DNA from: Psammoneis japonica
Lineage: Eukaryota
Direction: 5' to 3'
DNA length: 64,000 bases
Assembly: GCA_008632985.1 (NCBI GenBank)
Contig: QPGO01000005.1
Coordinates: 1-64,000, forward strand
This document shows positions 3,691 through 32,613 of this stretch, piece after piece. A program made the translations under genes and the position numbers. Within the stretch, counting starts at the first letter, position 1; the number at the start of each line of letters is the position of its first letter. The notes beneath the pieces were generated by a model. That model did not search any database. It had not been told where the DNA came from and worked only from the letters and a program-made list of their open reading frames with translations.

Positions 3691-3798
3691 ACTTTCTTGA
3701 GCCTTGTCCTCATGTGTGTGCTCACCCCACTTGACCAAGAACTGCATGCCAGTGCTTCTTCCCTCCCCACTCCTCCCCAGATCCAGCACACCAGCCAT
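3691..3798 (-). pseudogene. Possible degenerate chromodomain fragment
   Basis: VLDLGRSGEGRSTGMQFLVKWGEHTHEDKAQES resembles the chromodomain (F/Y)LVKWxGYxxxxxxWE motif with Y->H. Short and heavily decayed. Confidence 0.3.
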
Positions 3799-6700: not shown

Positions 6701-6867
6701 CCATTTTCATCTTGTGGCAGAGAATTTGGATGTTGGATGTGAGCCCAATGAAAACTTCCATTGTCCAGATCATGATGGATTGGGGGGGGGGGGGGGGATC
6801 TCTTGCTTGTTGCAGTGCTTTCATGTGTGCCAAACAACAGATTGTCAAAGGCTGGCTGTTGTGCCAA

Positions 6868-7106
6868 GTTGAATGCCATCTGCAATGCCACCCACAGTGT
6901 CATGTTGAAATGCTGGCCACCACCACATTGTGTTGAATGCCATCTGTGCAGTGTCATGTTGAATGCTGGCCATCATCATGTTGCATCAAACACCATCTGC
7001 AGTGTTTTGTGCTGTCATGTTGAGTGTTGAATGCTGGCTGTCACATCACATCAAATGCCATCCTGTGTGTTGCGTCAAATGCCAGCTGTTGCATCATGTC
7101 AAATGC
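6868..7106 (+). repeat. Degenerate short tandem repeats (GTTGAATGCCATC / GTGTCATGTTGAATGCTGGC)
   Basis: Several imperfect copies next to the Tc1-like remnant; possibly subterminal repeats. Confidence 0.6.
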
Positions 7107-7229
7107 AGTTGATCAAGATGCTTCAGAGCAGCAAAGTTCAGTTGACACATCAAAAAACAAAATTAGACAAACCAACAGCAACAGAGGCACAGGTGAAAAA
7201 GTTGTCAAAATCATTGCTGCCTGCTTCAC

Positions 7230-8230
7230 TTTTCTTGCTGCATTCTGGAACCCTGGCATTTTGAAAAAGTTGTGGGCTCTTGTTGGCATCATTTCTGCCA
7301 ACACAAGCTCATGACCCCAGTCCCTTGCAGCATCTAAATTGCATTAATTCCACCTTGCATGAGCTTCCCACTGTTGCCCTCAATGAGGTCACAAACTCTG
7401 TTGGAGATGTGAACAGATGCATTGTCTGCAACCACAGCCAAGCCTGGTTCATAAAGACAGCATTTCCAAAGTGCAGGAACCACTTTTTCTTCCACACGAG
7501 CCTTGAATCTGGCCATGTCCACTGTTCCACATTCTGTGTCTTTGTTGTTGGGATGATTGTGCACATGCTCCACCATCTTGCAAGATTCTTTCACAAACCC
7601 AGCATGTCATCAGAGGCAATTGGGGGTTGCACCACTTGTGGAAATCTTTCTCAAAATGCAAATCAACCACAGGTGGATTGTCCAGTTCCTCCCATCCTCC
7701 AGCATGCAGACACTGAGGCACATTTTGTTTTGGCTGTTTCATCAAGAAATGCAGCTGTTGTGGGTTTTGGTGGGAACACATCCAGCCATCTTTGATGCCA
7801 CTGCTTTTCAGCTTCACACCTCTGTTGGGCACAGACTGTGGCCTTCTACAAGCTGTGGCCAAGTCAAAACAGTTGGCACCACGTGTCACTTGGGCTCCAT
7901 GTTTTGCCATGTCTCTCCTTTCTGTTGCCAGCTGCATCTCATCAAGGTGCAAATGGGGCATCTCTCTTTGATGGCATGGAGCACATCATGATTGTCAGCT
8001 TCAGAAAATGAACAAGCAGCTCTTGTTGTGACATCATGCCATCTTTTCCAGCTTCTTGCTCTGTGATGAGTTTCAGCTTTCATCTCACCAGGCTGGAGCA
8101 GATGAAGCCACTTCCAAAAGGTTTTGCATGGGGTGCTCTTCATCCAAGAGCCATCTGTTTCCTGCCAATCATCTTTGTTGAATGTTTGCACTTTGTTCCC
8201 ATCATTCTTGCCAGCACAGCTCAAAGACTT
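7230..8230 (-). mobile_element. Decayed IS630/Tc1-mariner (DDE) transposase
   Basis: Frame-broken fragments in the expected order: PHLHLDEMQ (cf. PxLYLDE), AFLDETAK (first catalytic D) and GTVDMARFKARVEEKVVPAL...AVVADNASVHISNRVCDLIE (DNAxxH, second D). Confidence 0.75.
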
Positions 8231-9105
8231 GCCACCTGGCTAATCTGTTGTTGTTTCAATGTGTGCCTTTGGGATTTTCTTGTCATCATGCTGAACTCCA
8301 CCATGGCTTCATGAGGCTGGAGGACACAAACAAGCAAAGCAGTGCACTCCAGGTTTCACAGACCCCCCTGAATTGCATCAATTCTTTCTGTGCCCCCAAA
8401 ATGGTTTTTGCTTCTTTCTTCTTGCCACAAAAAGAAGCCAGAGCAACCGCGATGCAGGAAGCTGCATCAAAAAAAAAAGCGCCATTGGTTGCATGGTGCA
8501 TGACCACAACAAAAGGAGCACAGATTGTCATGACAACAATGCTTGCCATGACAGTGCAGCATTCAGACACTCTTCTCAGTGCAACAAACAAATGATGTGA
8601 GCCATAAAAGCCAACGGATGAAGCCAAATCAACAAAGCACAAACAACATGGCCAATGGCATGTGGTCAAAGCCCACAACCGTGTGGTGTGCAAAATGACT
8701 TTTTGTTGTGTGATGACACAACAATGCAACAATCAGGCCTTTCTCAATGCAGTGAACAAACAATGCAGGCCATGAAAGCCAACAGATGAAGCTGAGTCAA
8801 TGAAGCACAAACAACATCATGGGGCTGCTGACAGATGCAAAAACATGCAACATCAGTGGAAGTGGCTCTTTGAGTGCTTCTCAATGAGCCCACAATCAAT
8901 TTTTGAAGAAAAGGCAAAAAAGCAGATTCTTGCATTGATTTCTGATTCAATGATGCCTGGCTGAATTTCAAAAGAGGTCAAATGGGGACAAAAGTGTGAC
9001 AGCATCTCAACAAGTGCTGCTGTGTGGCACAGCTGCATTGAAAAAACTCACATTTTGCTTCTGCACGTGCAAGATTTCATGCTTGGGGCAAAGTGTGCAG
9101 AGTGT

Positions 9106-9510
9106 TGGAGGGGCAAAAGTTGCAAGCTCAGAGCGGGGCCAATGGCAAAGAACAGAGACAATGGCAACAAATGCATGTGCACACATGTGGTGCCACAAGG
9201 GCATGTTTGGTTGGAGGGTGATGCCCCGTTGTGCTCAACAGATTCCTGTCATTGTGGTCTGCCCAGCTCATTTGCAAACTTACTTTGAGGTTGTTTGGGC
9301 TTTTGTTTGTGGCCTCTGGGGTGAAGTCTGGACATGCATGGCTCCTCCAGTCTGTTTCTTCAATGAGAACAACCTGTGCTGCTGCTGTCACCAGAACAAA
9401 TGCTCTGAGACAGATGATGCAAGCTTCACAGCTGACCTCACTCTGAATGGCCACAGTCCAAAGTCAATGAATGCACTCTGTTTGTGCTTGACTGCCAGCC
9501 TGGCAAAGGC
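9106..9510 (+). pseudogene. Hypermutated copy of IMP1-like exon 2 and its 3' flank (source ~31131-31525)
   Basis: Colinear with the source. NKCMCTHVVPQGHVWLEGDAPLCSTDSCHCG vs DKCMSTYVVPQGHVWLEGDAPLCSIDSRHYG, followed by indels and stops. Confidence 0.92.
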
Positions 9511-11445
9511 AAAAAGACACAGACCTGGTTTAAAGTTCTGTCACACCATTGACTGGCATGTTCAACATGGGCCAACCCACACTTCTGGCACACTGACATG
9601 CAGCAGAAGGGGAAAGGATTGGCCAGAACTGGCATCACCTGATGGCAACACCTTTCAGAAATGACTGACAATGGGGTGGGCACCACAAATTGCAAAGTGC
9701 GTCACCTCCTTGATTGTGCTCCATTTGAGACAACGCTTGCATGCAGAAACCCAGCTCTGCATTTTAGCCACACAGAGTGGGTGGGGTGTTTTCCTCTGCT
9801 GAGTCCAAAAGCAACTCTTGATCCTCTGCAAAACGGTTTTGACACCTGTTGCACACAGCCATGGATTCAGCCTCAGGAGCAAGACAATGATGTTGAGAAG
9901 TCTTTCTTGAGTCAACATCACAACCATGAACTTGTTTGTTGTGTGACTGCCACATGCTGTGTAAATTGTGGGGAGCTCAAAGCACTGTTGGGTGGCACCA
10001 GATGTTTAACAGGTGCCTGCTCAAGTTCTGGAACACTTTCCAAACCACTCACCTTCATGAAACTGGAGCCCACAACAAGCACCAAGCTCAAGAGGAGAAC
10101 AAACCCCCTCCTGATTGAGTGCTCTAAGTTGGGCACTTCATTTGGAAATTGTGATGGGAGGTGCCATTTCATCATGGGTCCAAGCTTCAGGTGCAAAGAA
10201 GAGAAAATCTTCTGGAGAGGATGTGTGTGGTGTCAAGTTTGTTGCCATGCTTGTGAAGCCCTTGAGGGAACTTCCCATGCTGAGGCTCATCCGAGGGACA
10301 CTTGACAGCGTGGTCACAGTCTTCCATGGGTGCTCACAAGACAAGCATCAGTGCCATCAGGCAGGATTGCACCTGCAAAGAACAATCTTGTTTGTGGGAA
10401 GAAGCAGACACAAGTGTCATCTGTTCTGACAATGAACCAAGCTGGTGTGAGCGACCGTCCAGTCAATGAGAGCTGAGTCAGATGAGTGTTGCCAGCTGCA
10501 CTCACACATGCACTCCAACAAGGGAGAAGCAATGGCAGCACATTGCTTGGGGGTGCTTGAGCCTGGCAGAAACAATGCCATCTGATGACAAAAGTCAAGC
10601 TTGACAGCGAGGAAAGGGAGTTGCAACAGGCATGTCATGAGAATGTCACCCATGAAGCTGATTGGCCAATCCATCAACTCCAACATTGACCCAAGCATTG
10701 AGGGGCAACAAGTCTACCAGGGATGTGCAATTTTGATGACTTGTGAACCAAGACACTGGTGAGCCAACCATGAGGAGGAAGAATCCAAGTGAGAAACAAT
10801 GGCACACAACAGCTGGCAAACTTTGTTGACAACACCCCAGTCTGAAGATGGGACATGTGTGCCATGTGGCATCACAGCCAAAAGTCCATCTTCTGATGGT
10901 CTGCACCAGAAGAGTCCAATGAAGGCCTGGCAACCAAAAGGTGGCTGGGCACACCTGCCAGACCTTGTTGTTGCAGCGCGGGGGCATTGATGCCCAGGCA
11001 ACAGGATGCGCTGCAATGCTCCAAGAGCTGAAACAAAAACCTGCAAACAGATGGCACACCACAGGCTTCAACCAAATGCTGGTCAAGCAACCGCCAATCG
11101 TGAGACAGTCTCCGAAAAGCCAAAAATGGCGCCATCGTCTCTTGATGCACACGGGGACCATTGCCACCTGCTGCAGAGTGCAAAGCAAGTTGACAAACAA
11201 CCTCGGACAAAGGGACGTTAAATGATGCCAACTGAGAGACGAGCAAGACTCTCACTGGGGCAAGGATCTGAGGCGAGCAGAGAACACGTCAGGGGGGGGA
11301 GGAGGCTCGAACATTGCCAGTTTGGAGATGGGGGGGGGGGGGGGCGGGGGCCAAAGATCCAGCAAGTGCCCACCATAGAGTGTAGACAACATAACCCAAT
11401 GTTGTCGCCGAGTTCCAAGTTTAGTAGATTACACATGGGTGTCTA

Positions 11446-12026
11446 CCAGCAAAAAACCGAATTGAGTCCTCATGACTGAACTGAGTCCTTGTCCGACCCA
11501 CATGTTGAATCGATCGATAAAATGATGAAAAAACCAAGTAATCAAACTGTTTTTTTTGCTGTGATAATCTTCAATTGCTGCTGCTTCTGACCATGTGTTT
11601 GGATTTGGGTGTTTCAGTTTTCTCCGGCTGCCCGTTGCCGTCGAACATGGTCGTTTGCATTTTTTGAAGCGGAAACGAGATTCAACAATTCTCATGTAAT
11701 TTTTTTATCAAGACACGTACATCATATATCCTCACTGCTCCGTGCTGCTTGCTGATTTGGAGATATGTTGAATTTCTTCTGGTACTTGACACGTAGAAAT
11801 GTACAGGGGGGCCGAATTGAGTCATTACGCGAAAAAGGTGCAACTTTGGCAGCTAGATTAAGCTAATCCCAAGCCCATTTCACAACCGACTATCATCAAA
11901 GAACTCGTTAAGAGATGATGAAAAGCTAGGAAATGCGAAGAAATGGTCAGTTTTAGGCCAATGATGGGCAAAAAATGGCCATTCAACATATGGCAAAAAT
12001 AAGGACTCAATTCGGTTTTTTACTGG
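11446..12026. mobile_element. Non-autonomous DNA transposon (MITE, Tc1/mariner-like), 581 bp, 28-bp TIRs, TA target duplication
   Basis: TA|CCAGCAAAAAACCGAATTGAGTCCTCAT (11446-11473) ... ATAAGGACTCAATTCGGTTTTTTACTGG|TA (11999-12026); 26/28 identity. Confidence 0.85.
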
Positions 12027-12530
12027 TACGGGGTCGTACCGGGTAAGAGAGTGCGTGGTCGGTGGTGCGCAGTGTGCTGGGTGGTGAAGTGAAGAAGGAC
12101 GGACCGAGGGTGCGGACATACGGGCGCGCGAGTGGTGGCGGTGGCTCCGTTGAGCGGGTGTACGGTATGTCGTCGAAGAAGAGCTTGGTAGTTGGAGAGA
12201 TGTGTTGAGAGGGCGAAGCCGAAGCTAAGGCGCATGATAGATGCTGTGTCTATCTCAGTGATAACATCATTCCTACATAGGGCCCTACGGTAGATACTGC
12301 GATCTCTTTTTATCGGCCTCCTTATTAATTGTGTTGTCTTTGACATGCAATAAACTTGATTCGTCGAACGCAATCATTCCTACGTAGATACTGGGATCAT
12401 TATCACTGTGTGCCAAAAATGCCAATGAAAAACGTTCTGGGGCACGCACGTGCAGTTAGACTATACCGAATACCATTCCTCAGAGGGATAGCACACCATA
12501 CCGGTATGCAGCTGCATAGGCTAGCAGAGG

Positions 12531-12903
12531 TATGACGTTTGGAGACCTACGACGTGTCTTCCGACTCACAATCTGCCCGCTTTCCCAAGTGGTTCTTCTG
12601 AATTCGGATGGGTGGTGGTTCATCCCTGGCTTTTTCTGCTCTCGCATGACTGCTCTGAGAGTTGCGACCCTCTTTTCCTGTTTCTCGATCTTTTGTTAAA
12701 CTTGGCACCAAGTTCCTGGTGGCACTGAATGTTCTCAGCAAAAATGGCCATGCATTCCTCGAACGAGCCACAGCCGAGATCGTTTCTCTGCAAATGAACT
12801 GAGACCTTGATTGCATCAATCCGCTGTTTCGAGTCATTTGTCAAACCCGAAACGTCGTCAAGTCGTTCCAAACAGCGCATCACGAAATGCAAGGATCTCT
12901 CAA
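12531..12903 (-). pseudogene. Deleted copy of the 3' end of the BTB-like gene (source ~31531-31985)
   Basis: MRCLERLDDVSGLTNDSKQRIDAIK...CGSFEECMAIFAENI and RDEPPPIRIQKNHLGKRADCES match the 31546-32613 protein. Carries internal deletions and a frameshift. Confidence 0.92.
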
Positions 12904-13144
12904 TGCTTCATCTGGTGAGACAAAAAAGGACAAATGACAGAAAAGAGTTCTTCTTGGCGTGAGCAATCGATCCTGTATTGAGGACAGTTCTTCATTCTGC
13001 AGCAATGTAAGCAATTGTTGACAGAACCACGACCATTATATTGCGATCTTAGTCTTCCATACTAAAACCTGTATCGACTCTGCCCCAGTGTTCAAAAATT
13101 GGTTTCCTTGTCCTTGTAGATTTGACTCGCCGCCACGACAAACT

Positions 13145-15813: not shown

Positions 15814-16779
15814 TAGCACTGGTGGACAAGCTGAGTGCACGCCATCAGGGTCGATGTTGTCTTTCGAATTGTAACCTCTTCGTCACTACTGTAGGGCTAG
15901 TGGTACCATGTTGCATGAAGACCAGGCACTAGGGCCCTACAGTACTTACTCTAGCTGGGTGTTTTCAATGAACTTGGATTTGTGATGTGTGTGCGGCGGT
16001 CATCCCGTAGAAACTCCACAGTTCTGTACGGTACGACAGACTACTACATAGACTCAGACATAGACTGCGTCAGTACAGTACATAGAATGTTCTACTTGAC
16101 CGGCATTTCTGGGGGAAATGGTGGACATTTATGTAATCATCTGTTTGTCTCAAACAAGACGCAGCATAAATGTGGGGCCAGCCACAGTGGAATGGAGAGG
16201 GTCATTCCTACATCATCACACATCATGGACAGTGGATCACTCTCAGGTTCATCCGGTCCACTGTGGCGGCACCCCAATTCTTACAGTGTGTGAAAATGAC
16301 CCTTTTTCCTCTGCTGCACAATGAATCTGGATGGGGTCATTTGATCTCTTGAAAGCGACTGGGTGACACATCGTGGCAACGTGGGTGGCCTGGCATGCAA
16401 CGGAGCACCAAACACCGCCAGCTGCTGCCAACTCTGATGTTTGTCAGCCATCAGTGCCCTCAAATCCTCCCTCCCTGCTGCAAGCCAAATGGCGCTTGGG
16501 GGGCAAAAATGGCCTGAAAATGCTGTGTGTGACCAGTGTGTCCAAAAATTGAAAAATGTGCAGGTGGGTGGGCAGCCAATGACCTCTGGTGGCAGTGGAG
16601 AGCCGGCGACAATGCAGGCTGGCCCACGAACAGAAGCAAGGGCAGTGCACAACCCAGCAGCAAGAAAAAAGCCTGCAAATCATCAAAATTCTCAAGGAGG
16701 TTTTGGCTGCATCTTGTTGACAGAGTTCTCTGCAACTGAGCTGGCGCCCTCCAAAGCCACTGTGTTGTTGCCTCAAATT

Positions 16780-17780
16780 TGTTGATGAACAAGTTGTGGC
16801 TGTTGGGCTTCTGAGCTGACAACTGCTGCTGTGGCCACTGTTGCTCTGCTTGCCACTCTGACAGAGCAACAGCTGCTGGCTGCTGTGGCGGTTGCGTGGC
16901 TCCTGCAGCCGGGTGGCAATTTGGAGATGCAGTGCCAGCCAGGTGACCAGCGCAGGGGCAGCACAGCACTGCTGCTGCAGCTGTTGCTGTCGGCACCTGC
17001 CACAACCACTGCCACAACTGCCACAACCTGTGACTCTGGTGGAACAACTGCCACTGCTGCTGCAGTGACTCCTGTGGCTGGGTGACAAAGGGGGGTGCTG
17101 TGCTCTGGCCAGGCGACAAGTGGCAAGTGTGGAGATGTGCCACGCACCACTGCTGCTGCCCCCCCCCCCCCCCCCCAACCACTGCCGCAACTGGCTGCTG
17201 CTGTGACAATCACTGCTGCAACTGTTGGCACCTGAGACTTCTCTGGCAGGGCAACAAAAACTGCCGCTGCTGCAGCTGTGGCGATTCCCATGGTCGGGTG
17301 ATGAGAAGGGGGTGCAGTGCTGGTTTTGGGTGATGAGAAGGGGACAAGCCACCACTTCTGCAACTGCTGCTGCTGTGACCAACTGCTGCCACACATGTTG
17401 CCACTTGTGACTTTGGTGGGGTGACAACAACCACCACTGCTGTGACTGCCACATCAACTCTTCCGCAGTCAGGTGAGACAAGGGGGGGTTGCAGCACGGG
17501 TCAGGTGATGAGAAGGGGATGCACTGCTGCTGCTGCAACCACTGCTTCCCCAACAACTGCCACTGCTGTGACCATCAACTGCTGCAGTCATTGCCACTTG
17601 CAACTCTGGTGAGTTGACAACCACTGCTGCAACTGCCACAATGATTCTTGCAGACAGACAATGAGAAGGGCACTGTCAGGTGATGAGAAGGGGATGTTCC
17701 ACCACTGCTGAAACTGCTGTTCCGCCCCGATGGTGATTCCCAGCCGGGTGATGAGAACTGGAGCTGCTGCTGCTGCAAGG
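16780..17780. repeat. Low-complexity (CTG/CCACTGCTG) region with recurring GGTGATGAGAAGGG motif
   Basis: Motif or near-match at about 17297, 17329, 17504, 17660, 17679 and 17747, within CTG/ACTGCC-rich sequence. Confidence 0.7.
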
Positions 17781-20372
17781 AGTTTGTGTGCTTGGACTGC
17801 TTGGTGGTTGCTTCTTGGCCACTCTCATTTTGGCTTTTGTGGAGGCTGTGTTGCTTGCCAGTTGGGCATGACTCTTTTTGTGTTGTCTTCCACACCTTGT
17901 CCATTGGCAGCAGTGGCTGCTGCATTCCATGACACTCATTTCCAGCAGAGGTTTTGGACTGATGCTTTGCTGGTGCATCAACACATGCTCCTCTGATTGC
18001 CTTGAGCTCAGCTTCTCAACAAGGTGAGGATCAGAGTTGCATGCACTGCACGTGGCTTCACAGATTGCTTGCACTGCCTGACATGCCATGTGTTTTTCAC
18101 TTCATTCCAGCAGAGACTTTGTTGCATGTGTTTTCATTGTGTGTCCATGAAGCTGGCCTTGCCAATGTCTTCCTCTCCCTCCTCTGCTCCACAGGATGAT
18201 TCGGCCATTGTTTGAGATTGTGGTTTGTGAAAGAGAGCCTTGCACACTCATCTAAACTGGGGGACAATGCCAATGGACACATCAACATTGGAGCCCAAAG
18301 CTGGTGCTCCTGCCTTTGCCCAAAATGTGCCTTGATGAAGCTTTGGAGGCATTGAGGGCAGTGCTGGTTCAAAATGATCCCACCCATGCATGGTCATGTG
18401 CTGTCCGATGTCAAGATCCGGACAGATTTTTTGGGCTGAATCTGTCAAAAGAGTGGGACCCGCCCTTTCATTCTCAAAGCACAGGCCAAATGCTTTGTCA
18501 AAATGCTTGTCACTCTTCAAGAAGGCTGTGCAGCATGGCTCATCATGCCAATGAACGTCAACATCTTCAGGCTTTGGAAAGCACCTTGCAAGACGACCAC
18601 ACAGATGCAAGCACACAGGTCATGCCCCCCCCATTCTCCTCTTGCTGTCCACAACATGAGCACATCAGACAGAATTTGTCACTGACTTGACAGATTTTGA
18701 TGATGACACAAGTCCATCAAACCTCAACCAAATGGTGCTTGGCAACAGATTTGAAAATCATTTGGATCCACCAGCAGCAAGTGAGCCTGGTGGCATTTCC
18801 ACTTTACCCAAAACTTGCCAACAGATTCTCTCCACAAATGGTCATGGATTGACTGCATTTGCACAAGCTGGCAAGCTTGCTGCTGCAGCAAGCTGTGGCA
18901 CAAAAAACTCTGGAACAACAAATGTGTGCAGAAGCAGCACCAGGGCCCCAGCAGAAATGCCACAAAAGTCCGGAATTTTGTAATTTTTTGACATCCCTGG
19001 TGCTGATTCCATGACAGATTCTACGCAGTTTGTTGATGTTCCAGACTTTTTGACATTTCTGCTGAGGCCCTGGTGCTGTTTCCATGGAAATTTGTTGTTC
19101 CAGAGCTCTTTTGCAAGGTGGCAAGCTGTCAGACTGTGACACAATGGAGCAAGCTCTTCCTTTTCCAAGTTTGTTGGCAAGCTGTCCATTGCCTTTGCTG
19201 CCTTTTGCTCTTTGGGTTGGCTCTCATGTCAGAAACTCTGCATTGGACAAAGCAGCTTTTTGCAATGCTCTGATTTGCTTTGGCGCCCAGTGTGTGGTGC
19301 TTGATGGCCCCACCCTCAACTTCAGATGAGTTTGATGTTCATGTGCTTTTGCATTTGGCAAGCTTCTCAAAACACAGCCACATTTGTGTTTTGATTGCAA
19401 TGCACACATCATGAGCAAAGTTTGCATCAAAATTGTTTCATTGACTCCTTGTTGCAGCCAACAAAGCAAAAGTTTTCAAAAGCACGTGCTCATGTGTGGC
19501 ATCTCCAGCTTGTCTTCCAACCCTGCATCTGTTGTTCACAACAATGGAGTGTTCTTTGTTGCCTCCAATGCTGGATGTCCCACCAAGCTGGCATCGTTGC
19601 TGACACACAGCAGCACTGTCTTGTTCTTTAGCCACATTTGTGCAACTCCATGGTGAAGGCACAGCCTGTGGCCACCTTGGAACCACTGGTTTTGACTTTC
19701 ACAGGGGCCACAAAGCTTGTTGTCATTGTTGTTTGTCATGAGTTGGTTTTGGGCAGCAAATGAAGGATGGTCTGTGGTTGGAACAACCAACACCAACCAA
19801 GCATTGTTGCCTGCATGAGCCCCCCTTTTCACACTGAAAAAGAGAATTGACAATGAAAATGAGAGCTGAGGTCAGCTGCACATGCAAAATTTTTGAGTTT
19901 TGTGCATTGTGGTTGCATCCACTGATGCCAAGTCTTGAAGCTTTGGGGAGCCCACATCTGGGAGGAACTTGGTGCTTGCACAGCAACAGGCCCTGGCACC
20001 ATCTTCCCACTGGGGTTGCATGATGCTGATGATCTGGTGAGAGGAAGGGATTCTCAAGCCTCTCAAGCAATGCTCATTCTTGCAGCTACAAATCCACTTG
20101 CTTCAAAGTGAGTGTGGCTTCTGCCACTTGTCTGAGAGTCATGACATGATCATTTGCAAGGTTGCTTGAGCTTCTTTGCAAAACAACCCATTGCACAATG
20201 CCACGAAAGGTGTGGGGCAATGGCTTGCTCAAGGCACGGCTTGAGACATTTGCATTTTTTCTCCTTTTTTGTGATCCAACAGGAGAACTTGTTCTGGAGT
20301 CTTAAAAAGGCAAGACTTGGCATCAGCATTTGCAATTCTCACACTGAGTGCGTCAATCATGTGTGCCCACCA

Positions 20373-20606
20373 AGTCACGACTCAACGTCATTCTGGTCGC
20401 ATCTCACGACCACAACCCAGACTCAGATTTTCTCTTCAAAACAATTGGCTCATCACAAAATCGATTCAAACAGAAGCAACGACATTCGTCATAATTTCTA
20501 GACAACGACTTTCAACAAGCGTCTGTTTACCTCTGTCGCTGTTCACATTGCTGCCAACCTCCGAGGTCTCATCCATCCTGCTCAGCTGCAGGACTGTATC
20601 TCGACT
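20373..20606 (+). repeat. 5' LTR (234 bp, AGTC...GACT)
   Basis: Direct repeat of 27372-27605; preceded by TSD CACCA. Confidence 0.95.
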
Positions 20607-20768
20607 GGTTGTAGAGACCAATTTACGCGTTGACGAGAGCTCCTGACCGAGTCATCGTCACGGACGCTTTCGGTTTTTGATTTTGAAGCAAACCCGGGAA
20701 ACAGCTGAGTCTCTCTCGCTTCTCTCGTCTTCACTCTAACAAGAACCTCCCATGCTGCACTCTCTGTC

Positions 20769-23700
20769 ATGGCTGCCATCGACCCAGATGTTCTGGCGAA
20801 GGCGTTTGCCGATGCAATGGCCGCTGACGCCGCGGCGACCGCTCATCCGGCTCCAACCAAGCCGTTACGTGGTGGAATTCACCCAACCCACGGGGTTTAC
20901 ATTGGTGGTTCCAAACTCAACAACAACTACGAACAATCCAACGATAGAACCTGCCGATTCGCCTCTCAGCGCCGTCATCCCAAGGCTCTCGACTCGATAG
21001 AACGATCTCTCCGCGATCAACAAGCTTCCGCAATGACTTCCAAGTTCAACGGTCGACTTGAGATTTCGGACGGTCCCATCAACGAGCTTGACAAGGACCA
21101 TTTCGTCAAGACTGTTCGAGATCTAGTAGAAGCCCACGGTCAGCAGACGTTCTACCATGTCAAGGACAGCGACGACAAGGTCCAACATGTCTTCGACCAT
21201 CTTCACGAGTTTGCTGTGACCGATCTCGTGAACGAGTACACGGCCAGGAAAGCAGCTGCCGATGACACCAAGTACGACGAGATCGAGCTCGACGATGTCG
21301 GGCTCTCTCAACTTCTCGTTCACTCAAGAATCACTAACACCTTTCGCGAGAAAATCGAGACCAAGTTCAACCATCTTTTGGACTGCCAAGACTACCCTGG
21401 ATCTGTTCCATTCATGATGGCTCTCGATGCTTGCAATGCCAGCGCTCTAACGGACATTGAGACGGCTGAGAAGCAGCTAGAAGACCTTGGTTTGGTTGAC
21501 TGTCCCGGCGAGGATTGCACGGACTTTGCTGCCGAAGCTCTTCGCATCGTGAAAATTATGCAGACCGACTGCGCGCTTCCGGCGAACACAAGCTCCAAGC
21601 TGCTCCACAAGATCTCCTCTACGTCCTCTGAATGCTTCAATCGCCGAGTCTACAACAAGCTCGACGACGTCAAGGCTATGGAACGCAAGCACCGCCTCAA
21701 GAATCCTGCTGACATCGTGTCCGACAGCGATTGCAGAACGCTCGGACCGGTCGGTGTCATTGCGTGGATTCAAGAGCAACACAACGAACTCGTGAAGGAC
21801 GGGGAATGGCCTGCATTAGTCGCCAAGCTACCCGAGAGTAATCTTTCGACTACGGACAACCCTGGGAAGACGAAGCACTGTTGTGGTTGCGGTCTCGAGG
21901 GGTGCACCAAGAAGACGTGTCCGAAGTGCAACGCCAAACCGCCGCGCGATGATCCTCCTCCCAATCCGCCGCCTGCAGACGACCCTTCCAAGAAGAAGAG
22001 GCGACCCATCGCTGTCTGGCGCACTAAATTTGACGGAGAAACGAAGAAGGATAAGAATGGCAAGGAATGGAAGTGGTGTGCCACGTGCAAGGCGAAGGGT
22101 GCCGACAAACCTGGAATCCACCAGAAGCACTCTACCGCGGAACATGCCGACGACCGCAGGCAACCTCCCAAGGAGACCCCAGCCGGGAATTTGTCTTCCG
22201 TTGCTGATCCAGATAGTGGCGTGCCCATGGGTCCGCCCGCTCAGACTACCAAGGCACCAGAGGGAGACGAATCCGACCCCAACGAGTTGGTTTTCACGGG
22301 AATGTGGTGCGCGGCTACGGATCCCGTTACCGACCCGGATTTCTGTTCCGCCCCTGTCACTGCTGCAATTGTTGTTACTCCGGCTTCTTCGGCCGAGAGG
22401 GAGAGCGACACAGTCGTTAGTGCTGAGGTGGTTTGCATCGAAACGAGCCCACCTGCACTCACCTCAGTCGTGGATCCAGTCGTGTCTCCCATCGTGGTTG
22501 AGACTGTCACTCCCGAAGACGCCGATGACTTCTACGAATGCTCCGACGCTTTCTCTACCTTTGAAAACGAACCACCGGCTGTTGAGTTGTTTCCGGCCTC
22601 GAAGCTGTACTCCATCAAGCATCCAGATGAGTTCTTTGACGCTCCCGCACATTTGACGGATGTGCTGTCAGACGACACCAAGTTAGATCTCATCCTTGAA
22701 CACGACGCACACTTTGAAGACGCATGCTACGACTTGCCTCCGTGTGTTACGTATCGTGGCTTCGATTTCTACGATCCAGAGGTCCTGGACACGGATGATT
22801 GTCACGAGGACGTCGAAGACGAGCCCACTTCGCGTCGCTCACTCTTGGGTCGAGTCAAGCCACTCACATTCTGGCTCGCCGCCATGTTTTGGGAAACGGT
22901 GCTACATCTTTGCTTTGCTCCGATCCCATGTGTTCCTCGAGCTCTACGCCGCCAGCGCAAACTCCCAACTTTGCACGGGTTTCCAGCCTCCTGGATGGTC
23001 CCATCCATTGCAGTGATGGCATGGTCAGCAGTTTACGCCGGTCAACAGCCCGAGCATCCCTTCTCGCACGTGCCAAGTCGTTTTTCGACCGCCAGCTCTC
23101 AAGTCTACCACATTGTGGAAGAGCTGGATGACCGGATAGTGCCAGATGCGGGGTCACTGTTCGAACATCACAGGATCAAAGGCACGCAGGTGCTCACCGA
23201 GTTTGTCACGCGCCATCCGTCACACGCACTGAGCACTCGTCTCAAGGCCTGCTGGGAGAGCCCAGAAGTGGCTGAACGGTCTGATGCGATAGACGAATCA
23301 GCCTTCTTTGACACCTGTGAGGAACTGGAACCTCTCGACGACCAGAAGCATTTCTTTGACGCTCTTGAGGACTTCAGCCCGGATTTCTTCCGGTTTGACG
23401 AGCTCTGTCTGCCGCATCACATCGTGGACACCACCCATTTTCAAGATCCTGTGGAGCCATTGGAGGAAGCAAGTGTTAGACCAGTCGTCTGTGATGCCTC
23501 CACCATCCAACCACTCACCGGACAATCACAAGCCGACCTCCTTGCATCCGATCCGCAGGCACTCATCGGTCTGTCGGACGAGGCTCTCACGGTCGTCATG
23601 GATGCTGGTGCCACGTTAGCTGTCACCCCCGATGAAGATGATTTTACGGGGCCTGTGACTGTTCCCAAGAAACCCTTACAGATCAATGGGATTGCCAACG

Positions 23701-26700
23701 GTCTTACCATCCAGGGTGCCAGTCCGGTTGCGTGGGTGTTCACAACGCCGAGTGGGGCTACCATCCAACTGAACACCATGGCATGCCACGTCCCTGGAGC
23801 CCGTCAGCGCCTGCCATCGCCTCAACGCCTCTTCAACGAAGAGAAGGGGGTACGTGGGAAGTGTGAGGGCGATGAAACCACTTTCCGTTTACATGTTGAC
23901 GGGACAGGCAAGTTGGTCGTGCCATGTCATCCATCAAGCCACTCACCCATTGCGTCGATGACCAAGGGCGCATCTGCCGCTCCTCAAGTGAACCTTCAGA
24001 TCCTTGACGAGGAGAATCAAAACCTCACGGCAGGCCAAAAGCTTCTTCTCGAAATGCACGCCCGTTTTGGCCATTTGAACTTTGGTCGCGTCCAAGCACT
24101 TCTCCGCGCAGTTCCGTTCCTTTCGAACCGTTTCAAGTCCGCAGCGAAGTGTGACCACCCAAGATGCGAGGCATGCGAGTGTGCTAAAGGTCACAGACGC
24201 TCTCTTGGATCTACTCACAAGTCGACAGTCCCTGAACACGACGGGGCCCTTCGAGCTGACCATCTTCGACCGGGTCAGGCTGTCAGCGTTGATCATTTTG
24301 AGTCGCGCCTTTTAGGCCGCACCTTCGACTCTTATGGCACAGCCACGTCCAAGCAATTCAAGGGCGGTTGTATCTTTGTCGACCACGCCTCTGGCTATGT
24401 CCAGGTCGAGCACCAACTAGGTTTCTCCGCTGTTGAGACGATCCGCGCGAAGCAAGCGTTTGAGAAACATGCTTTGGACCACGGGGTCATCGTCCAAGAA
24501 TTTCTTGCCGATGGTGGCGCTTTCAAGGCCAACGCTTTTGTACAACATGTGCGAGAACATGAACAACGTCTCCGTTTTTGTGGAACCAACGCCCATCATC
24601 AGAACGGCATCGCAGAGCGGGGTGTCCGCAGCATCTCCAACATGGCGAGAGCGATGTTGCTTCATGCATCAATCCACTGGAAGGGGGGAATTGACAGCTC
24701 CCCATGGCCCATGGCAGTTTCTTGTGCCACGTGTGTCTACAATGTCACCCCAACTTCCAAAGGACATTGCCCAGCGGACATTTTCACCGGCTCGACAGTG
24801 CCAAGACATCGGTTGCGCGACATTCACACATGGGGATGTCCAGCGTGCGCACTTGACCCGACCCTCGCTTCCGGGAAGAAGCTCCCACGTTGGGAGCCTC
24901 GCACTTGTCGCGCTTTGTTCGTGGGACTCAGTGCCATCCATTCCAGTGAGGTTCCTTTGGTCCTCAATTTTCAAACTGGAAGTGTCACACCTCAGCATCA
25001 TGTGGTCTTTGACGATCTCTTCACTGCCGTCCCATCAATCGAGAGGGAGACGGATCCACCTGATCACTGGGAACACTTGTGCCTCAACCAATCAACATGC
25101 ATCCCTCTGGAGAAGGATCAGGCAGTTCATTTGCACGATGAGTGGCTCACCCCTCCAGAGCGTCAATGTAAAGAACGAGAACTAGCCAGAGCAACACGCA
25201 TTCGCGGGCATTTTGAGCCTGCTCCATCGATTGCTGTGCCGGATTCACCCACTTCTCGCGACGACGTCACCGATCGAGTCGCACCTGCGACTCAGCAGCC
25301 AACGCCACCAGTCCCACCTGCGACTCAAACTCCCACAGACTCTACGGACTCTACACCAATTCAGCCACCTGAACCTCAAGACAGTGACGGACTTCCGCCA
25401 CCCGAAGCGCCGACGGAACCAACAGCTCCTCCCCCAGTCGAGACACCTCCCATGACGAATCCAGAGGGAGTGCCAGGGCTGCGACGGTCTTCACGGTCAA
25501 CCAAGGGACAGTTCAACTCTGCCAAGTTTGTAGATGAGGTCTGCTTCAGCTCCGTCGAGGAAATGCCGCTGCCGATCGGACACGAGGCTCAACCAGCGTA
25601 TCTGGTGACTCTCGAGACGGATTTGGACAGTGGTGCCATCAATGTCGGCGATCCACGAGCCCACGCAGCTAGCAAGAAAACCAAGGACCCTGACATGCCT
25701 TCGTCACACAATGCTCTGAAAGGTCCGGACGCCGACGAATGGATCAAGGCGATGAAAATTGAAGTCAACGCACTCATGCATCGTCGAGCCTGGAAAGCAG
25801 TCGAGCGTCAGCCGCATGTGAATGTACTTCCAGGCACATGGGCACTAAAGCTCAAGAGACTCCCAGATGGAACCCCTCTCAAGCACAAGGCCCGATGCTG
25901 CATCCGCGGTGATTTGCAGAAAGAAGGAGTCGACTGCTTCGAAACCCACGCACCGGTTGTGCAATGGTCCAGCATCCGACTCATGCTCACTGCGGCATTA
26001 AAGGAGGGATGGACTGCATGACAGGTGGACTGTGCCACAGCCTTTTGCCAAGCTGACATCGCCGAGGAAGTTTGCACAACACCGCCGAAGGGATTTGCGC
26101 CAAGGTCGGGATTTCTCAAACTTTTGAAAGGACCATGCGGCCTAAAGCTGTCTCCCAAGGGCTTCTACGAGAAGTTGCGAGCTGGTTTAACCGAGCGCGG
26201 ATGGGTGCCTTCAGCCATAGATCCCTGTTTGTATTTCAAAGAGGGCATGATGTGTGTGGTGCACGTCGACGACACCGTTTTTGCTGGAGCTTCAGCTGAA
26301 GCTCTAGAAGCCGAAATTTGCAAGTTAGGAGTCTCCGACGACGAACATCGCCACGCATTTGAACTTAGAGACGAAGGAGAAGTCGGCAACTTTCTCGGCA
26401 TCAAGATCAAAAAGCTCTCCAAGGGTCGATTTCTACTCACTCAACCCGGTCTAATTGACAAGGTCCTGCGCACCGCACAGATGCAGGATTGCAATGGAGC
26501 ATCTGCTCCAGCTCCACCTGCGGCCATTGGTGCCGACACAGACGGCCTGCCTTTTGATGAACCCTGCGATTGTCGCTCAGTTGTTGGAATGTTGATGTGC
26601 TTGGCAGCGAACAGCCGGCCAGACATTGCACATGCCACACATCAAGCAGCTCGATTCTCGTTTGCACCCCGAGCGTCCCACGCTGCTGCAGTGAAGCGGA

Positions 26701-27350
26701 CACTCCGACACCTCAAAGCAACTGCTGCTGAAGGTCTCATTCTCAAGCCTGCGCAAGATCATCGAGTTGATTGTTGCGTCGATTCTGACTTCGCGGGGTC
26801 ATTTGGTGTGGAAGATGGTCAAGACCCAGTTTCTGTCAAGTCCAGGACTGGATGCCTTGTCTGCTGCGCCGGCTGCCCGCTTGTCTGGGTGTCCAAGCTA
26901 CAGACTCTTGTGGCATTGTCGACTGTGGAAGCGGAATGTGTCGCACTTTCTCAAGCCATGCGCGATCTCATCCCTGTTCGTGAAGTTCTCAAGGAGCTCA
27001 ACCACCACGCATTCGGAAAGTCTGACCGCCAAAACCCAATCACGACTCACTCCAAGGCTTTTGAGCTCGCAACCCAAGGCACCGATGACTCGCCTGTAGA
27101 GCAGAATGTCCCACCTGCGTCCGTTGTGTGCGAAGATAACTCCGCGTGCCTCAAGTTCGCACGTGTGCCCAAGTTGTCTCTGCGAACCAAACACATCGGT
27201 ATCCCGCACCACTGGTTTAGGACTAAAGTCGAACAATTGGAGATCGACATCCAACCCATCAGCACTCTAGAGCAACTGGCCGATCAGTTCACGAAGGGAC
27301 TGCGGACCGATGCGTTCCGTGCGGCTAGAAAGGCTCTCATGGGCTGGTGA
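20769..27350 (+). pseudogene. Copia gag-pol polyprotein, one in-frame stop and numerous Tyr->Cys/His substitutions
   Basis: Zn knuckle CCGCGLEGCTKKTC, protease MDAGAT, integrase HARFGH...CEAC, VSVDH and QNGIAER, RT KARCCIRGD and VVHVDD, RNase H DSDFAG/EAEC/EDN/ADQFTK. The two long ORFs are in one frame, split by TGA at 26019-26021 (likely from CGA). Confidence 0.95.
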
Positions 27351-27371
27351 GCTCTCTCGGTTGAGAGGGAG

Positions 27372-27605
27372 AGTCACGACTCAACGTCATTCTGGTCGCA
27401 TCTCACGACTGCAACCCAGACTCAGATTTTCTCTTCGAAATGATTAGCTCATCACAAAATCGATTCAAACAGAAGCAACGACATTCGTCATGATTTCTAG
27501 ACAACGACTTTCAACAAGCGTCTGTTTACCTCTGTCGCCATTCACATTGCTGCCAACCTCCGAGGTCTTGTCCATCCCACTCAGCTGCAGGACTGCATCT
27601 CGACT
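27372..27605 (+). repeat. 3' LTR (234 bp)
   Basis: Follows the polypurine tract; followed by TSD CACCA. Confidence 0.95.
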
Positions 27606-28855
27606 CACCAGCCTTGGCATGGGATGTCTCTGTGGCTGCCATCTCTTGGCTTTTGAAGGAGTTCATTGGCACACTCAGCAAACTGTTCTTGGGTTGGCTG
27701 TTGGCAGCTGGGCTTGCATGGTGGTGACCAGGGTTGACAACAGGTTTGCCCCCCAGCAGCAGAAGGCATGGTCATTGCTTTGGCCAACAACCCACCAAGT
27801 TTGTCGCACACTTCGTCATCATGTCATGAGATGACTGCCCCCCCCCCTTCTTACGTTGAAGGGCATGGGCTCATTTGTCACAGTTGTGCAAAGTGCAGCA
27901 GGCAGGAGAGTGGCTGCAGAAATGCAAAAAACAACATGGCCCGCACTCAAAATGGGCTGTCATTTTTCGCACCACCTGGGGCTGGAATGTGCTGCATGTT
28001 GGGTGGAGAGTTTGCAGCCGCCACACTTGTCACATGTCTCAGGTGGATCAGGAGGCTCATGGCCAAGTCTCAACAAACAAAGGGCATCTTGGAACTCTTG
28101 ATGTGAGAGCTTGGCGCCATTTGGCGCTTCTGCGTCTCAGTGCCCAGGCCATTTTGTTGGGTGGAGTGCTGAGGAGATCAACTTGAGTGCATCTCCTCAT
28201 GCAGCTTGGCTCTTTCCTTTTGACCATTTCCCACTTCACTGTGCCAAAAATGTCCTTGCAGACAGCCAAGGTGAGTTCAGCACAGCCACAAAGTGAGCCA
28301 ATCACGCAAGAACATGCGAGGGTGCTTTTTGCGTCAAAGTTTTGCTTTGTTGGCTGCACTGGACAAGGGATTGACAGCCATGCAAATTTGATTGGGAGGG
28401 CAGACAAGACTGCTCTTGGGTTTTGTTGTCTGCCAAGGTCTTGCCAAACAGCGCTGCCCTCTTCGACATCAGCGAGCACGACTTGCAGCCCTTGGCCACT
28501 TTGCAGGCGCTGCCACTCTCGTGTTGTGGGGGCTTCTGCACACTGTGCTCCATGGGTGGCACCACATCACCATTTGGGATGAATCTTGAGCAACCAAGGT
28601 CCATGCATTGGATTTCTCCGCCACCCAGCAGCCAAAAGCTTGGGGTGGCAATTGAGCTCCGCACACACCAGCGGTGGTTCCCATCACAAGCTCAATGGCT
28701 TTTTGCCTCCTCAGCTGACAGGGGTTGTTCATGTGTGTGTGGCAGGCACAGTTTTGTTTTGGCAGCAGCAAGTTTGAAGCAAGTGTCGAACCATCACTGT
28801 GGTTCGATTTTCTGCCCGAGTGGGGCCATGGGCTGGTGTGTGTTGAAACACCCGT

Positions 28856-29120
28856 GATGGCGTCATCGCGAAGTGGCGACATCCAAGGATGGCCGCGTCA
28901 TCACGAAGCGGCGACACCAAGGATGGCGTCATCACGAAGCGGGCGGGGCGCGACGTTGCATCCGCGCGGCAGGATGGCATGCATCGCATCACGAAGCTTT
29001 ATGTATTGCCTGCATCTCATCAGCTAGCTCGCGGCATCCAGGTACTGTAGCATAATAGAGGATGGCGTCAACACGAAGCGGCGACATCCAACTGCTTCGC
29101 ATTGACGTCATCACGAAGCA
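28856..29120 (+). repeat. Cluster of ~6 imperfect GATGGCGTCATCACGAAGCGGCGAC repeats
   Basis: Copies at about 28856, 28888, 28922, 28973, 29061 and 29105, irregularly spaced. Confidence 0.8.
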
Positions 29121-29431
29121 ATGCAACTCTTCATTTTCCTTGTGTTGATTTCTTTTCGCTCTTAATTGTAGAATCATCATACGATGCGGCGTAGGCCCTA
29201 CTGTACTGTACGTCGAAGCTTCGCGTGATGCTTTCGCCACTGATTGGCTCTCACAAAATTCAAAATTTCAAGTCCAGTAGAGAGGTGCGTCCCGTCAAAA
29301 CAGATTTGCAAACTTCTGTTGAGGTGTTGGCTTCTCTTTGTGCTGTTTTGTACCTCTGTCCCTCTCCTTTTTTGCGCCGCCTCACCCTTTTGTCATCTCC
29401 GTTCCCTTTTTTCACGTCTCAGACTGTCGAG

Positions 29432-30294: not shown

Positions 30295-31473
30295 ATGACG
30301 GCTTCCGCAGCGTTGCGAAATCGAATAGCATCGCTTCAGTATGGACATCCGCTTATATCGATGCATCCTTATACTGGTAGAATGTTGAGTGGCTGTTGTC
30401 CCCTAAAGCCTCGTTGGACAACTTTTGAGATGAAAAGAAAGGTGTCGTCGACATCGGGAGGTAGAATACAGAAGCATGCGCTCTCAAGAAAAGAAAGACG
30501 GGCGCGAGAACGGAGGAGAGGAAAGAAAAGCGATCGCATAACGACGACTGATTCGTCATCGTCTGTGAATATGACGAAGCAGCGACAATCATGGAGAGAC
30601 AGACTCAAGCAGTTTTCTCGACGCTTGTATCCAGCGTTGAAAAGACCAGGTGGAGAGAACGGTTATTACAAACGAGAACATGTAGTTGCAATGCTAAAGA
30701 GATTTCCAATATGGGCTGGACTGGTGCTGTTCGCGACGCTCGATGAGACTTCACCGTTTGTAATTGATGAAGCCGGCGGGCCTAGTATGTTGCCTACAAT
30801 ATTTCCAATTGACGATCTTTTTCTGAGAAACACCTTGGCGTGGCATAGGCTGTTGGGATGGCACTGCAATTATCAAGTTGGAGACGTAGTAGTCTGGAGA
30901 AATCCAGAGACTCAAATGTACTCCTGTAAAAGAATAGTGGGACTGGAGAGTAAGAAATCAGTATTGAATTCGAGGTTAAGGCAGCCGTGTCAAACAACAG
31001 GTTGTTTTCTCACGTGACTTTCAATGTTTGCCCGGGCAGATCAAACGGTATTGCGATACGGAGAGTTTGTAGAGCTATACAAGGATCGACCAGATCTTGG
31101 AATTCACTGGCCTTTTGATGATATGACCGCTGGAGGGGTGAAAGTTGTGAGCTCCGAGTGGGATGCGACGGCAGAGAACGGAGACAATGCCGACAAATGC
31201 ATGAGTACGTATGTGGTGCCGCAAGGGCACGTTTGGTTGGAGGGTGACGCCCCATTGTGCTCGATAGATTCGCGTCACTACGGTCCAGTCCCTGTGGACT
31301 TGCTTCGAGGTCGTTTGATCTTTCGTTTGTGGCCTCTTTGGCGAGCTCCAGATGTGTACGGCTCCTCAGGTCTGTTTCTTCAACGAGAACGACCCCTGCC
31401 GCTATCAACAGAACAAATGTTGCAAGATGGACGGTACAAGCTCTACAAGCGACCTCACCCCCAACTTCCGTAG
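30295..31473 (+). CDS. IMP1: Mitochondrial inner membrane peptidase subunit (S26 family, IMP1-like), 2 exons
   Basis: GPSMLPT (catalytic Ser), KRIVGL (Lys), VPQGHVWLEGD...DSRHYGPVP. GT-AG intron 30950-31039 joins the frames. Start codon uncertain. Confidence 0.88.
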
Positions 31474-31545
31474 TTCAAAGTCAACACACGTCTTCTGTTT
31501 ATGCACGACTAGTCTAGTTAAGGAAATTACATGAAGTTTGGAGAC

Positions 31546-32613
31546 CTACGACTTATCTACCGACTCACAAGCTGCCCGCTTTCCCAAATGGTTCTTCTGG
31601 ATTCGGATGGGTGGTGGTTCATCCCTGGTATCGGTGCTCTTGCCAAAGAGCTTTTTCTGCTCTCGCATGACTGCTTTGAGAGTTGCGACCCTCTTTTCCT
31701 GTTTCTCGATCTTTTGTTTAATGTATTCAGTTGCATGTTCACTTTCCGCATCCTCTAGACCCAACTTGGCATCGTGCAAACGTTCCTGGTGATAACTAAT
31801 ATTTTCAGCAAAAATGGCCATGTATTCCTCGAATGAACCACAGTAGAGATCTTTCCTCTGTAAATGAACTGAAGACTGAATGGCGGCCTTGATCGCGTCA
31901 ATCCGCAGTTTCAAGTCATTTGTCAAGCACGAAACGTCGTCAAGTCGTTCCAAACTGCGCATAATGAACGATAAGGATCGCTCAAACAGTAGAGAGAGGT
32001 TGAGACGATCGGCCAACTCGCAAAGCGAAGAGCAATTGTCCGAATCAATCGATCTGACCAAAATGTTCACCATGGCATCCAAAACTGGAAGGCACTGAAC
32101 GTAATGCGCAATCTCGCAGCATGCAACCACAAAGTCACACGAAACGTCCTCACTGCTTTTCTTCTTCAAGACGAGGTCAACAAACTCTCGCACTGCTTCC
32201 AATTCAAACGACTCCAACGAAAAGTGGAGGTGACTTTTATTCTCTGGCTTTCCAGAGCGAAACAGTTCTCGCGAAGAAGCGAGTGCATAAATCGTATCAC
32301 ACGCCTCTGCGATGGGTCTCAGTGGTAGATACGGTACGGTTCCTGTCGAGGTTTGAAAGTCAATTGTATCGGCCTTCAAAGTATCCAAAAAGCTCTGCCT
32401 CCTCTTTTCATCCCCACTCGGATCTTGCTCAAAAATGGACGCATGGACCTCCCTCTGATACTTCTTGGCATCTTCTACTCGTTTCTGAGCCAACTTGTAC
32501 CCTTCCTCGCTGAGTTCGTTCGGGTCAAGATCTTCCAACCCATGCGTCTGCACGTAATGATCCAAGTCCTGGATCAACCGATGACCATCTCCGTTCTCCT
32601 GCTGCTCGTTCAT
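31546..32613 (-). CDS. BTB/BACK-like domain protein with C-terminal coiled coil
   Basis: Intact ORF. The stretch FELEAVREFVDLV...CEIAHYVQC...IDSDNCSSLCELADRLNLSLL has the BTB-BACK pattern. ATG at 32613. Confidence 0.7.
   Translation of the reverse strand: MNEQQENGDGHRLIQDLDHYVQTHGLEDLDPNELSEEGYKLAQKRVEDAKKYQREVHASIFEQDPSGDEKRRQSFLDTLKADTIDFQTSTGTVPYLPLRPIAEACDTIYALASSRELFRSGKPENKSHLHFSLESFELEAVREFVDLVLKKKSSEDVSCDFVVACCEIAHYVQCLPVLDAMVNILVRSIDSDNCSSLCELADRLNLSLLFERSLSFIMRSLERLDDVSCLTNDLKLRIDAIKAAIQSSVHLQRKDLYCGSFEEYMAIFAENISYHQERLHDAKLGLEDAESEHATEYIKQKIEKQEKRVATLKAVMREQKKLFGKSTDTRDEPPPIRIQKNHLGKRAACESVDKS

Follow-up and report, generated by a model that had tools for sequence, protein, structure and literature searches.

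Here, we examine a window of 64,000 nucleotides from the diatom Psammoneis japonica (GenBank assembly GCA_008632985.1, contig QPGO01000005.1, positions 1 to 64,000 of the forward strand), in which a Ty1/copia retrotransposon (hereafter copia) lies nested in an older block of DNA that has lost nearly all of its TpA and CpG dinucleotides. The best explanation, and in our judgement a probable one, is that silent or inserted DNA in this species is subject to two separable mutation processes. The first would be a fast, TpA-specific A:T>G:C hypermutation. Working on either strand and converting TA to TG or CA, it would reach most TA sites in a newly inserted or duplicated copy while ordinary sites are still unchanged, and it would stop at sharp borders. 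The second would be a slower decay of CpG to TpG or CpA in only part of the TA-mutated DNA; it would act in block interiors and, so far weakly, in copia, and not in block margins or in a duplicate at 12.5 kb. The direction of the changes, their context specificity, their occurrence on both strands, the ratio of rates within copia and the uncoupling of the two losses by place are direct observations.

Throughout, o/e is the observed count of a dinucleotide divided by the expectation from base composition. In dinucleotide tables of the window, several blocks with sharp boundaries stand out by a near absence of TA and CG and a doubling of TG and CA. These eroded blocks lie at 2201-10976, 16283-20367, 27611-28786 and 63171-64000, with TA o/e of 0.02-0.03, CG o/e of 0.07-0.25 (0.08 in the first and 0.07 in the last) and TG/CA o/e of 1.6-2.1; the second and third are the two sides of the host block into which copia is inserted. 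The regions that matter most for comparison are:

29801-62800: gene-rich reference zone; TA 1143 (o/e 0.53), CG 2072 (o/e 1.05)
16283-20367: host block, left; TA 7 (o/e 0.03), CG 41 (0.16), TG 1.94, CA 1.82
27611-28786: host block, right; TA 1 (o/e 0.02), CG 21 (0.25)
401-2200: TA-lost region with CG about half kept; TA 11 (o/e 0.10), CG 64 (0.57)

A preliminary description of this DNA had held that the host sequence on both sides of copia has lost TA and CG alike, which these counts bear out. It had also placed a TA-poor, CG-retaining stretch near the start of the window, and there the TA deficit stands while CG is only about half retained. When the window was tiled at 200 bp and each of the 320 tiles classed by TA and CG loss, 202 kept both dinucleotides, 71 had lost both and 46 had lost TA and kept CG, about 10 of the last being chance lows in the gene zone. 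A single tile had kept TA and lost CG; it sits at the cut-off, within a gene, and no block in the window shows CG loss without TA loss, the pattern that the preliminary description had named as contrary to its expectation. The reference zone holds a mean of 6.9 TA per 200 bp, with a minimum of 1, and the pattern of TA loss across the tiles is far beyond chance.

The nested element occupies 20373-27605, with TA 100 (o/e 0.27) and CG 507 (o/e 0.95), as anticipated for a TA-poor, CG-retaining insertion. Its nesting is evident from its paired long terminal repeats (LTRs) and the target-site duplication CACCA:

20368-20372, + strand: left target-site duplication, CACCA; repeated at 27606-27610, each copy abutting an LTR
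20373-20606, + strand: 5' LTR, 234 bp, 94% identical to 27372-27605; a TGG primer-binding-like start follows
20709-27350, + strand: copia polyprotein frame, 2212 codons, with a single internal TGA at 26019-26021
26019-26021, + strand: TGA stop in the reverse-transcriptase (RT) domain, splitting the RVT_2 match
27372-27605, + strand: 3' LTR, with a purine tract just before it (~27363-27371)
27606-27610, + strand: right target-site duplication, CACCA, matching the left copy

The element has the traits of Ty1/copia, namely paired LTRs, a 5-bp target duplication and a copia-type reverse transcriptase placed after the integrase. Pfam matches in the polyprotein are weak (RVT_2 and gag_pre-integrs). 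It has 352 homologues at E<=1e-20; among the 120 listed, most carry PF07727 and many PF13976, and Fragilaria crotonensis proteins are among the homologues that share 40-60% identity with it. The catalytic residues are not intact: HVDD replaces YVDD, which we take to be the RT catalytic motif, one in-frame TGA is present and 23/27 conserved tyrosines (Tyr) are lost. Judged by its residues the frame is thus open but dead, and since TAA and TAG stops cannot arise in DNA devoid of TA, a long open frame is no sign of health.

The two LTRs record what has changed since insertion. All 14 of their 14 mismatches are interconversions of TA, CG, TG and CA, 13 of these letters falling at TA-derived sites. 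Two sites read TA in both LTRs, three read TA in one and TG or CA in the other, and five read TG in one and CA in the other; CG is shared at 12 sites and stands opposite CA at one, and hence differs at 1/13. There are no other mismatches in 234 bp, which puts background change at 0 of ~200 non-target sites: the LTR pair is 94% identical without any ordinary substitution. Given how seldom CG differs by a single step, the five TG/CA sites must go back to TA mutated independently in both LTRs. Under a simple model with ~14 ancestral TA, the maximum-likelihood TA loss per LTR is 0.75 (support interval 0.53-0.89), to be set against 0 of ~200 other LTR sites as a bound on the excess rate, and 1/26 copies of CG sites has been lost.

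The coding region tells the same story at the level of protein. The polyprotein, with its stop read as X, was aligned to 50 full-length homologues (the long ones among the 120 listed), a column being called conserved at 80% or more. Only 4/27 conserved Tyr columns are kept, 12 having become Cys, 7 His and 4 another residue, whereas 44/48 conserved Arg columns are kept, 34 of them still as CGN codons. CpG-type Arg changes are limited to one Gln (CAA) and one Cys (TGT), plus the TGA stop, and 34 of ~37 CGN-Arg codons survive. The remaining conserved columns are kept in 546/630 cases (Tyr versus other columns, p = 9e-16), and Tyr makes up 0.9% of the copia polyprotein versus 2.6-3.9% in 50/50 homologues. 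Against 52 closer homologues, the RT-RNase H part keeps 0/10 Tyr and 11/12 Arg. Conserved Ile, Thr and Met codons point to the same context, with a first-base A>G change in 11/13 cases after a preceding T versus 6/45 otherwise. The TGA at 26019-26021, given by the preliminary description as a clear CGA->TGA hit, falls in a column that is R in 26/50 and K in 24/50 homologues, with a majority of R in the closer set; descent from CGA is probable, not proven.

The surviving TA of copia, compared with gene-zone density, stand at 0-0.25 in ATA-type and 0.74-0.81 in CTA-type contexts, and the surviving Tyr codons are preceded by A in 0/20 cases and by C in 11/20. This hints at an extended target preference of the TA process. 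A simple per-strand trinucleotide model for the surviving TA did not fit.

Editing of the retroelement during its replication, either by A-to-I conversion of RNA (ADAR-like) or by an APOBEC-like activity, is barely credible as an explanation, even though ADAR prefers a 5' U and editing of retroelement intermediates is well known. Both strands of copia are mutated (Tyr>Cys 12, Tyr>His 7), and one-strand RNA or cDNA editing is therefore excluded as the sole cause. In addition, the same signature occurs in DNA that is not retroelement, namely a gene duplicate, the host block and the block margins, and APOBEC acts in the opposite direction (G>A/C>T).

The two losses can be placed on one scale as the ratio of minus log survival of TA to that of CG. 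In the LTRs these values are 1.38 and 0.039, a ratio of ~35, and in the coding region 1.91 and 0.085, a ratio of ~23; the CG figures come from 1 event in the LTRs and 3 in the coding region, which makes the ratio an order of magnitude and not a constant. Per-site TA conversion ~20-35 times faster than CG conversion in copia is thus supported, in agreement with the proposal that TpA is the faster to go. To our knowledge, this is the first relative timing of the two erosion processes in such repeats.

An old duplicate of the segment 30349-31985, present as three collinear pieces (6483-6696, 9103-9494 and 12499-12903), separates the two losses by place:

30349-31985: unmutated source copy (the 'before' state), with normal TA and CG
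6483-6696: first piece, in eroded block; 74% identity to 30381-30563, 94% when purine/pyrimidine-coded
9103-9494: second piece, in eroded block; 74% identity to 31131-31510, 92.6% when purine/pyrimidine-coded
12532-12975: third piece, a small TA-lost, CG-kept island (444 bp); TA 2 (o/e 0.07), CG 23 (0.92)

Relative to the source, the two in-block pieces have lost 14/14 TA and 38/39 CG; the source CG became TG in 22 cases and CA in 16 and was kept in 1, counting both orientations. As in the LTR pair, both processes converge on TG/CA, as had been claimed. The 12.5-kb piece, in a neighbourhood that is otherwise normal, has lost 6/7 TA and 2/16 CG, no more CG than the 3 that the source copy itself has lost. 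Transversions from the source are alike (32/562 for the block pieces versus 17/372 for the 12.5-kb piece, p = 0.55), whereas CG loss is not (38/39 versus 2/16, p = 4e-10). Since the pieces are of equal age by transversions and unequal in CG loss, CG loss varies by place and TA loss does not. The borders of the island are sharp: its left edge is the start of homology (12531/12532), its right edge lies within 72 bp of the homology end, and the series of TA positions breaks off at 12531 and picks up again at 12976. The duplicated 1.6-kb segment spans parts of two convergent open reading frames (ORFs). Two inserts, of ~2.4 kb and ~3.0 kb, now interrupt the duplicate, and the second of them is half eroded (9494-11218) and half normal (11219-12531).

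A similar state borders the eroded blocks themselves, at three of four block edges, as margins of 180-240 bp that are free of TA and keep CG (o/e 0.51-1.26); at the 16.3-kb edge the pattern is weak:

10977-11218: block-edge margin; TA 0, CG 11 (o/e 0.64)
28787-28999: block-edge margin; TA 0, CG 25 (o/e 1.26), GC 0.615
62988-63170: block-edge margin; TA 0, CG 7 (o/e 0.51)

The margin state is thus a pattern in space and not a stage in time. The preliminary description had rightly recognized TA-poor, CG-retaining DNA at 12.5 kb and at 28.85-29.0 kb, and its view that the two processes are partly independent is supported. Its single time axis, a 'clock' on which TpA goes before CpG, is only partly right and as worded is not supported: duplicate pieces of equal age differ in CG loss, the 12.5-kb piece is by transversions as old as the eroded pieces, and the stretch at 28.85-29.0 kb is one of several block-edge margins. 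CG loss depends on place in addition to time. The uncoupling of CG and TA loss in space confines the mechanism to two rules of targeting, as opposed to a single enzyme that follows a single rule.

These results bear directly on whether a single repeat-directed deaminase machinery might act efficiently on the A of TpA and weakly on the C of CpG, with CG loss as its slow arm. We consider this unlikely. Such a machinery would account for the 71/72 CG-lost 200-bp tiles that are also TA-lost, for domain borders that agree within ~200 bp and for a common end in TG/CA, and ADAT2-type enzymes reportedly deaminate A as well as C in DNA (cited in Mettrop et al., bioRxiv 10.64898/2026.01.13.699255). It fits poorly with the equal-age pieces, both TA-lost, whose CG loss is 2/16 versus 38/39, and with TA-free margins that keep CG at o/e 0.5-1.26.

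A comparison with another haplotype or strain comes from a DNA run that we call X1, used as assembled contigs and not as reads, which contains 0.57 of the window words; two runs of the same sample contain next to none of them, and no RNA run with the window was among those listed. Of the 334 places at which X1 varies from the window, 294 are unlisted, which leaves most copia-family differences unclassed. Over the single-copy host block the contigs have a depth of ~55 and show 29 other letters, 25 of them listed (11 other letters on the left, 16283-20367), and reproduce the TA/CG-free block at 0.1-0.8% difference. Among listed letters, X1 differs from the old block at 9 CG-type sites, 1 TA-type site, 2 TG/CA flips and 4 others, and from 29.0-30.0 kb at 4 TA-type sites, 1 flip and 1 CG-type site. 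Where TA has run out it is CG that still varies, and at the young edge it is TA; this fits the loss of TA first. The window reads TA where X1 reads CA or TG at 29278, 29639, 29645 and 29959, so that TA erosion at the block edge differs between haplotypes or strains. CG differs by similar proportions between the LTRs (1/13) and between the old block and X1 (9 of ~69), which suggests that copia CG may be decaying at about the block rate, youth then being a sufficient explanation for copia. At 4 copia places among those listed, CG is kept by all other X1 family contigs.

Summed contig depth over copia is 3300-7000, versus ~55 in the flanks, so that the family is abundant, with probably many tens of copies within 85% likeness. 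One X1 contig (depth 50) joins 20343-20367 to 27606 onward and skips 7238 bases, equal to copia plus one target duplication, giving the appearance of an empty site. The short side of this joint is 25 letters, below the 31-letter bar, and it was not counted as bridging; polymorphism of the copia insertion is only hinted at.

The contrast between copia and the host block could also reflect state and not time. TA might have been lost in a burst when the element was recognized, or from its cDNA, and CG kept in copia for want of methylation, in which case no rate ratio would exist. Zero background change between the LTRs would agree with a burst, the 12.5-kb piece is TA-lost DNA that has kept CG for long, and in the alga Bigelowiella natans a TpA hypermutation was active in 11/15 lines, with an ADAT2-like deaminase proposed (10.64898/2026.01.13.699255), which suggests episodes. 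Nevertheless, TA/TG and TA/CA differences from X1 occur at 20088, 29278, 29639, 29645 and 29959, in chromosomal DNA outside the element; CG-type losses do exist in copia (1 in an LTR, 2 in Arg codons, the stop itself and the 4 family-contig places); and the CG difference of the LTR pair is similar to that of the old block. We therefore regard a pure difference of state as improbable, about as much so as a single machinery.

Relatives of copia in metagenomes, of which we used the best 80 of 523 confirmed loci, come from other organisms; they bear on the separability of the processes and not on their order in P. japonica. The scan patterns contained Tyr and were biased against TA-mutated copies. 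Among these 80 loci, CG o/e is below 0.4 in 10, of which 8 have TA o/e of 0.42-0.75. These 8/80 again speak against the single machinery, albeit from other organisms. In other organisms, then, CG can be lost while TA stays; the processes are separable in both directions, and the order of TA before CG is a property of the P. japonica genome. One locus, L036 (1-5315), has 8 CG in 5.3 kb (o/e 0.03), a TA o/e of 0.47 and an open RT frame; 15/17 of its Arg codons are AGR, a case of CpG loss or avoidance without TA loss. Two others, L053 (1-4349) and L040 (1-1776), are poor in both dinucleotides along the entire contig (TA o/e 0.12 and 0.18, CG o/e 0.09 and 0.10, respectively) and keep 9 and 7 of 11 conserved Tyr. 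In the L053 RT frame 11/15 TA belong to Tyr codons, and the two loci may represent a lineage that persists despite TA pressure and retains TA solely at selected sites.

The last two loci raise the possibility that TA-poor lineages are alive and that the composition of copia is native to it, an evolved avoidance of TA. Alternatively, assembly or base calling could have failed at modified bases, which do cause systematic errors in long reads. Either explanation is highly improbable. No locus among the 80 has more than 2/11 conserved RT-RNase H Tyr changed to Cys or His; copia has 11/11 changed and 0/11 kept, and its catalytic YVDD reads HVDD. As for an artefact, identical LTR contexts have opposite outcomes (TG versus CA) at 5 sites, unlike what a deterministic miscall would give, and the X1 contigs match the TA/CG-free host block at the low divergence given above.

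What might these processes be? By analogy with the proposal made for B. natans, the first would be enzymatic adenine deamination in chromosomal DNA. The second is presumably deamination of 5-methylcytosine in CpG-methylated repeat domains. More tentatively, and with the odds against it, TpA hypermutation could be a first-line defence triggered by insertion, with a domain about one nucleosome wider than a later CpG-methylated core, CpG methylation and decay following only in sufficiently large silenced domains, and TA erasure preceding and possibly seeding heterochromatin. If so, a new copy would be marked and killed too fast for any ordinary substitution to occur, and TA loss would inflate LTR divergence and invalidate LTR dating in such genomes.

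Several points weigh against two separable processes as we have described them. The CG-lost and TA-lost domains coincide within ~200 bp, which could also fit one system with two activities, and CG loss is only presumably linked to 5-methylcytosine. TA loss in copia could be a single burst at or before integration and not a steady rate; the LTR differences, taken alone, would also allow editing of linear cDNA. The LTR estimate comes from 10 visible TA sites and one CG event, with a confidence interval for CG of 0.1-20%. A single rate is a simplification, in that the 100 surviving TA of copia lie mostly in CTA/TAG contexts and the loss is uneven, with more TA left at 20.4-22.8 kb. X1 and the sample behind the window may be related, and the support from X1 is not fully independent. 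Finally, at 21755-6, 24623-4 and 25777-8 all other family contigs read CA where copia reads TG; each place needs two mutations or a path CA>TA>TG, which simple independent decay of a shared TA does not explain.

The surroundings of these elements can be described briefly. Genes in the window are long and intron-poor and include, by Pfam, an ATR-like FAT domain, SPX, HSF and an N-terminal asparagine amidohydrolase. In the eroded blocks, a Pfam search of the 53 ORFs with 110 codons or more gave 0 families at E<=0.01; the host block (16283-20367/27611-28786) was not identified as a transposon in this way, and we do not call it one. A purine/pyrimidine-coded self-comparison showed nothing related to the host block in the rest of the window. 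The block contains ~180-bp tandem repeats at 16817-17774 and a ~210-bp palindrome at 18902-19111, and at 16.8-17.8 kb TG lies far above CA (~31 versus 19 per 200 bp).

In full-text literature searches, we came across no account of TA-targeted mutation in diatoms. The TA process appears in only one publication, on an unrelated alga, the rhizarian B. natans, where 230/231 de novo mutations in two viral inserts were TpA>TpG/CpA at a directly measured rate ~1000 times background, and where reverse transcriptase and DDE domains are over-represented among TpA-poor genes (Mettrop et al., bioRxiv 10.64898/2026.01.13.699255). The likenesses are close: A:T>G:C change only at TpA, giving TpG or CpA by strand; clusters poor in TpA and rich in CpA and TpG; and confinement to foreign or silent DNA with local borders, the gene zone being spared (TA o/e 0.53). 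The B. natans rate was measured in mutation-accumulation lines, whereas in our diatom the process is known from its footprint alone. Erosion here is near complete (0.02-0.03), in contrast to a TA o/e of 0.45 in the B. natans viral region. In addition, TA loss here is coupled with CG loss in space, not in tempo, and CpG has 0 occurrences in the preprint.

The slower process resembles the methyl-CpG decay of diatom transposons in changing CG to TG/CA, in repeat domains only and more slowly than the TA process. LTR elements of diatoms are CpG-methylated (PMC2806351), and methylation of diatom transposons depends on DNMT5a (PMC9998398). The process here differs in the great depth of the loss (38/39 CG, versus 3 in the source copy in an equal span of time).

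Repeat-induced point mutation (RIP) changes C>T, raises TpA and mutates both copies of a duplicate. The blocks described here share with RIP in Neurospora and other fungi (PMC3318451) a transition hypermutation of duplicated or mobile DNA, sharp borders and inactivated transposons. Unlike RIP, TpA is destroyed (o/e 0.02-0.03), TG/CA rise to 1.6-2.1, and the source copy at 30349-31985 keeps its TA and CG.

Finally, copia itself resembles the CoDi Ty1/copia elements of diatoms (PMC2806351) in its LTRs, 5-bp target duplication and copia domain order, and its LTR identity of 94% lies inside the 94-100% of CoDi elements. It differs from CoDi in LTR ends that read AG..CT rather than TG..CA and in being an enzymatically dead copy. 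Where a TA mutator is active, an element is younger than the identity of its LTRs suggests. LTR identity, ORFs (in TA-free DNA the only stops are TGA) and Pfam scores mislead the dating and annotation of transposons in such genomes.

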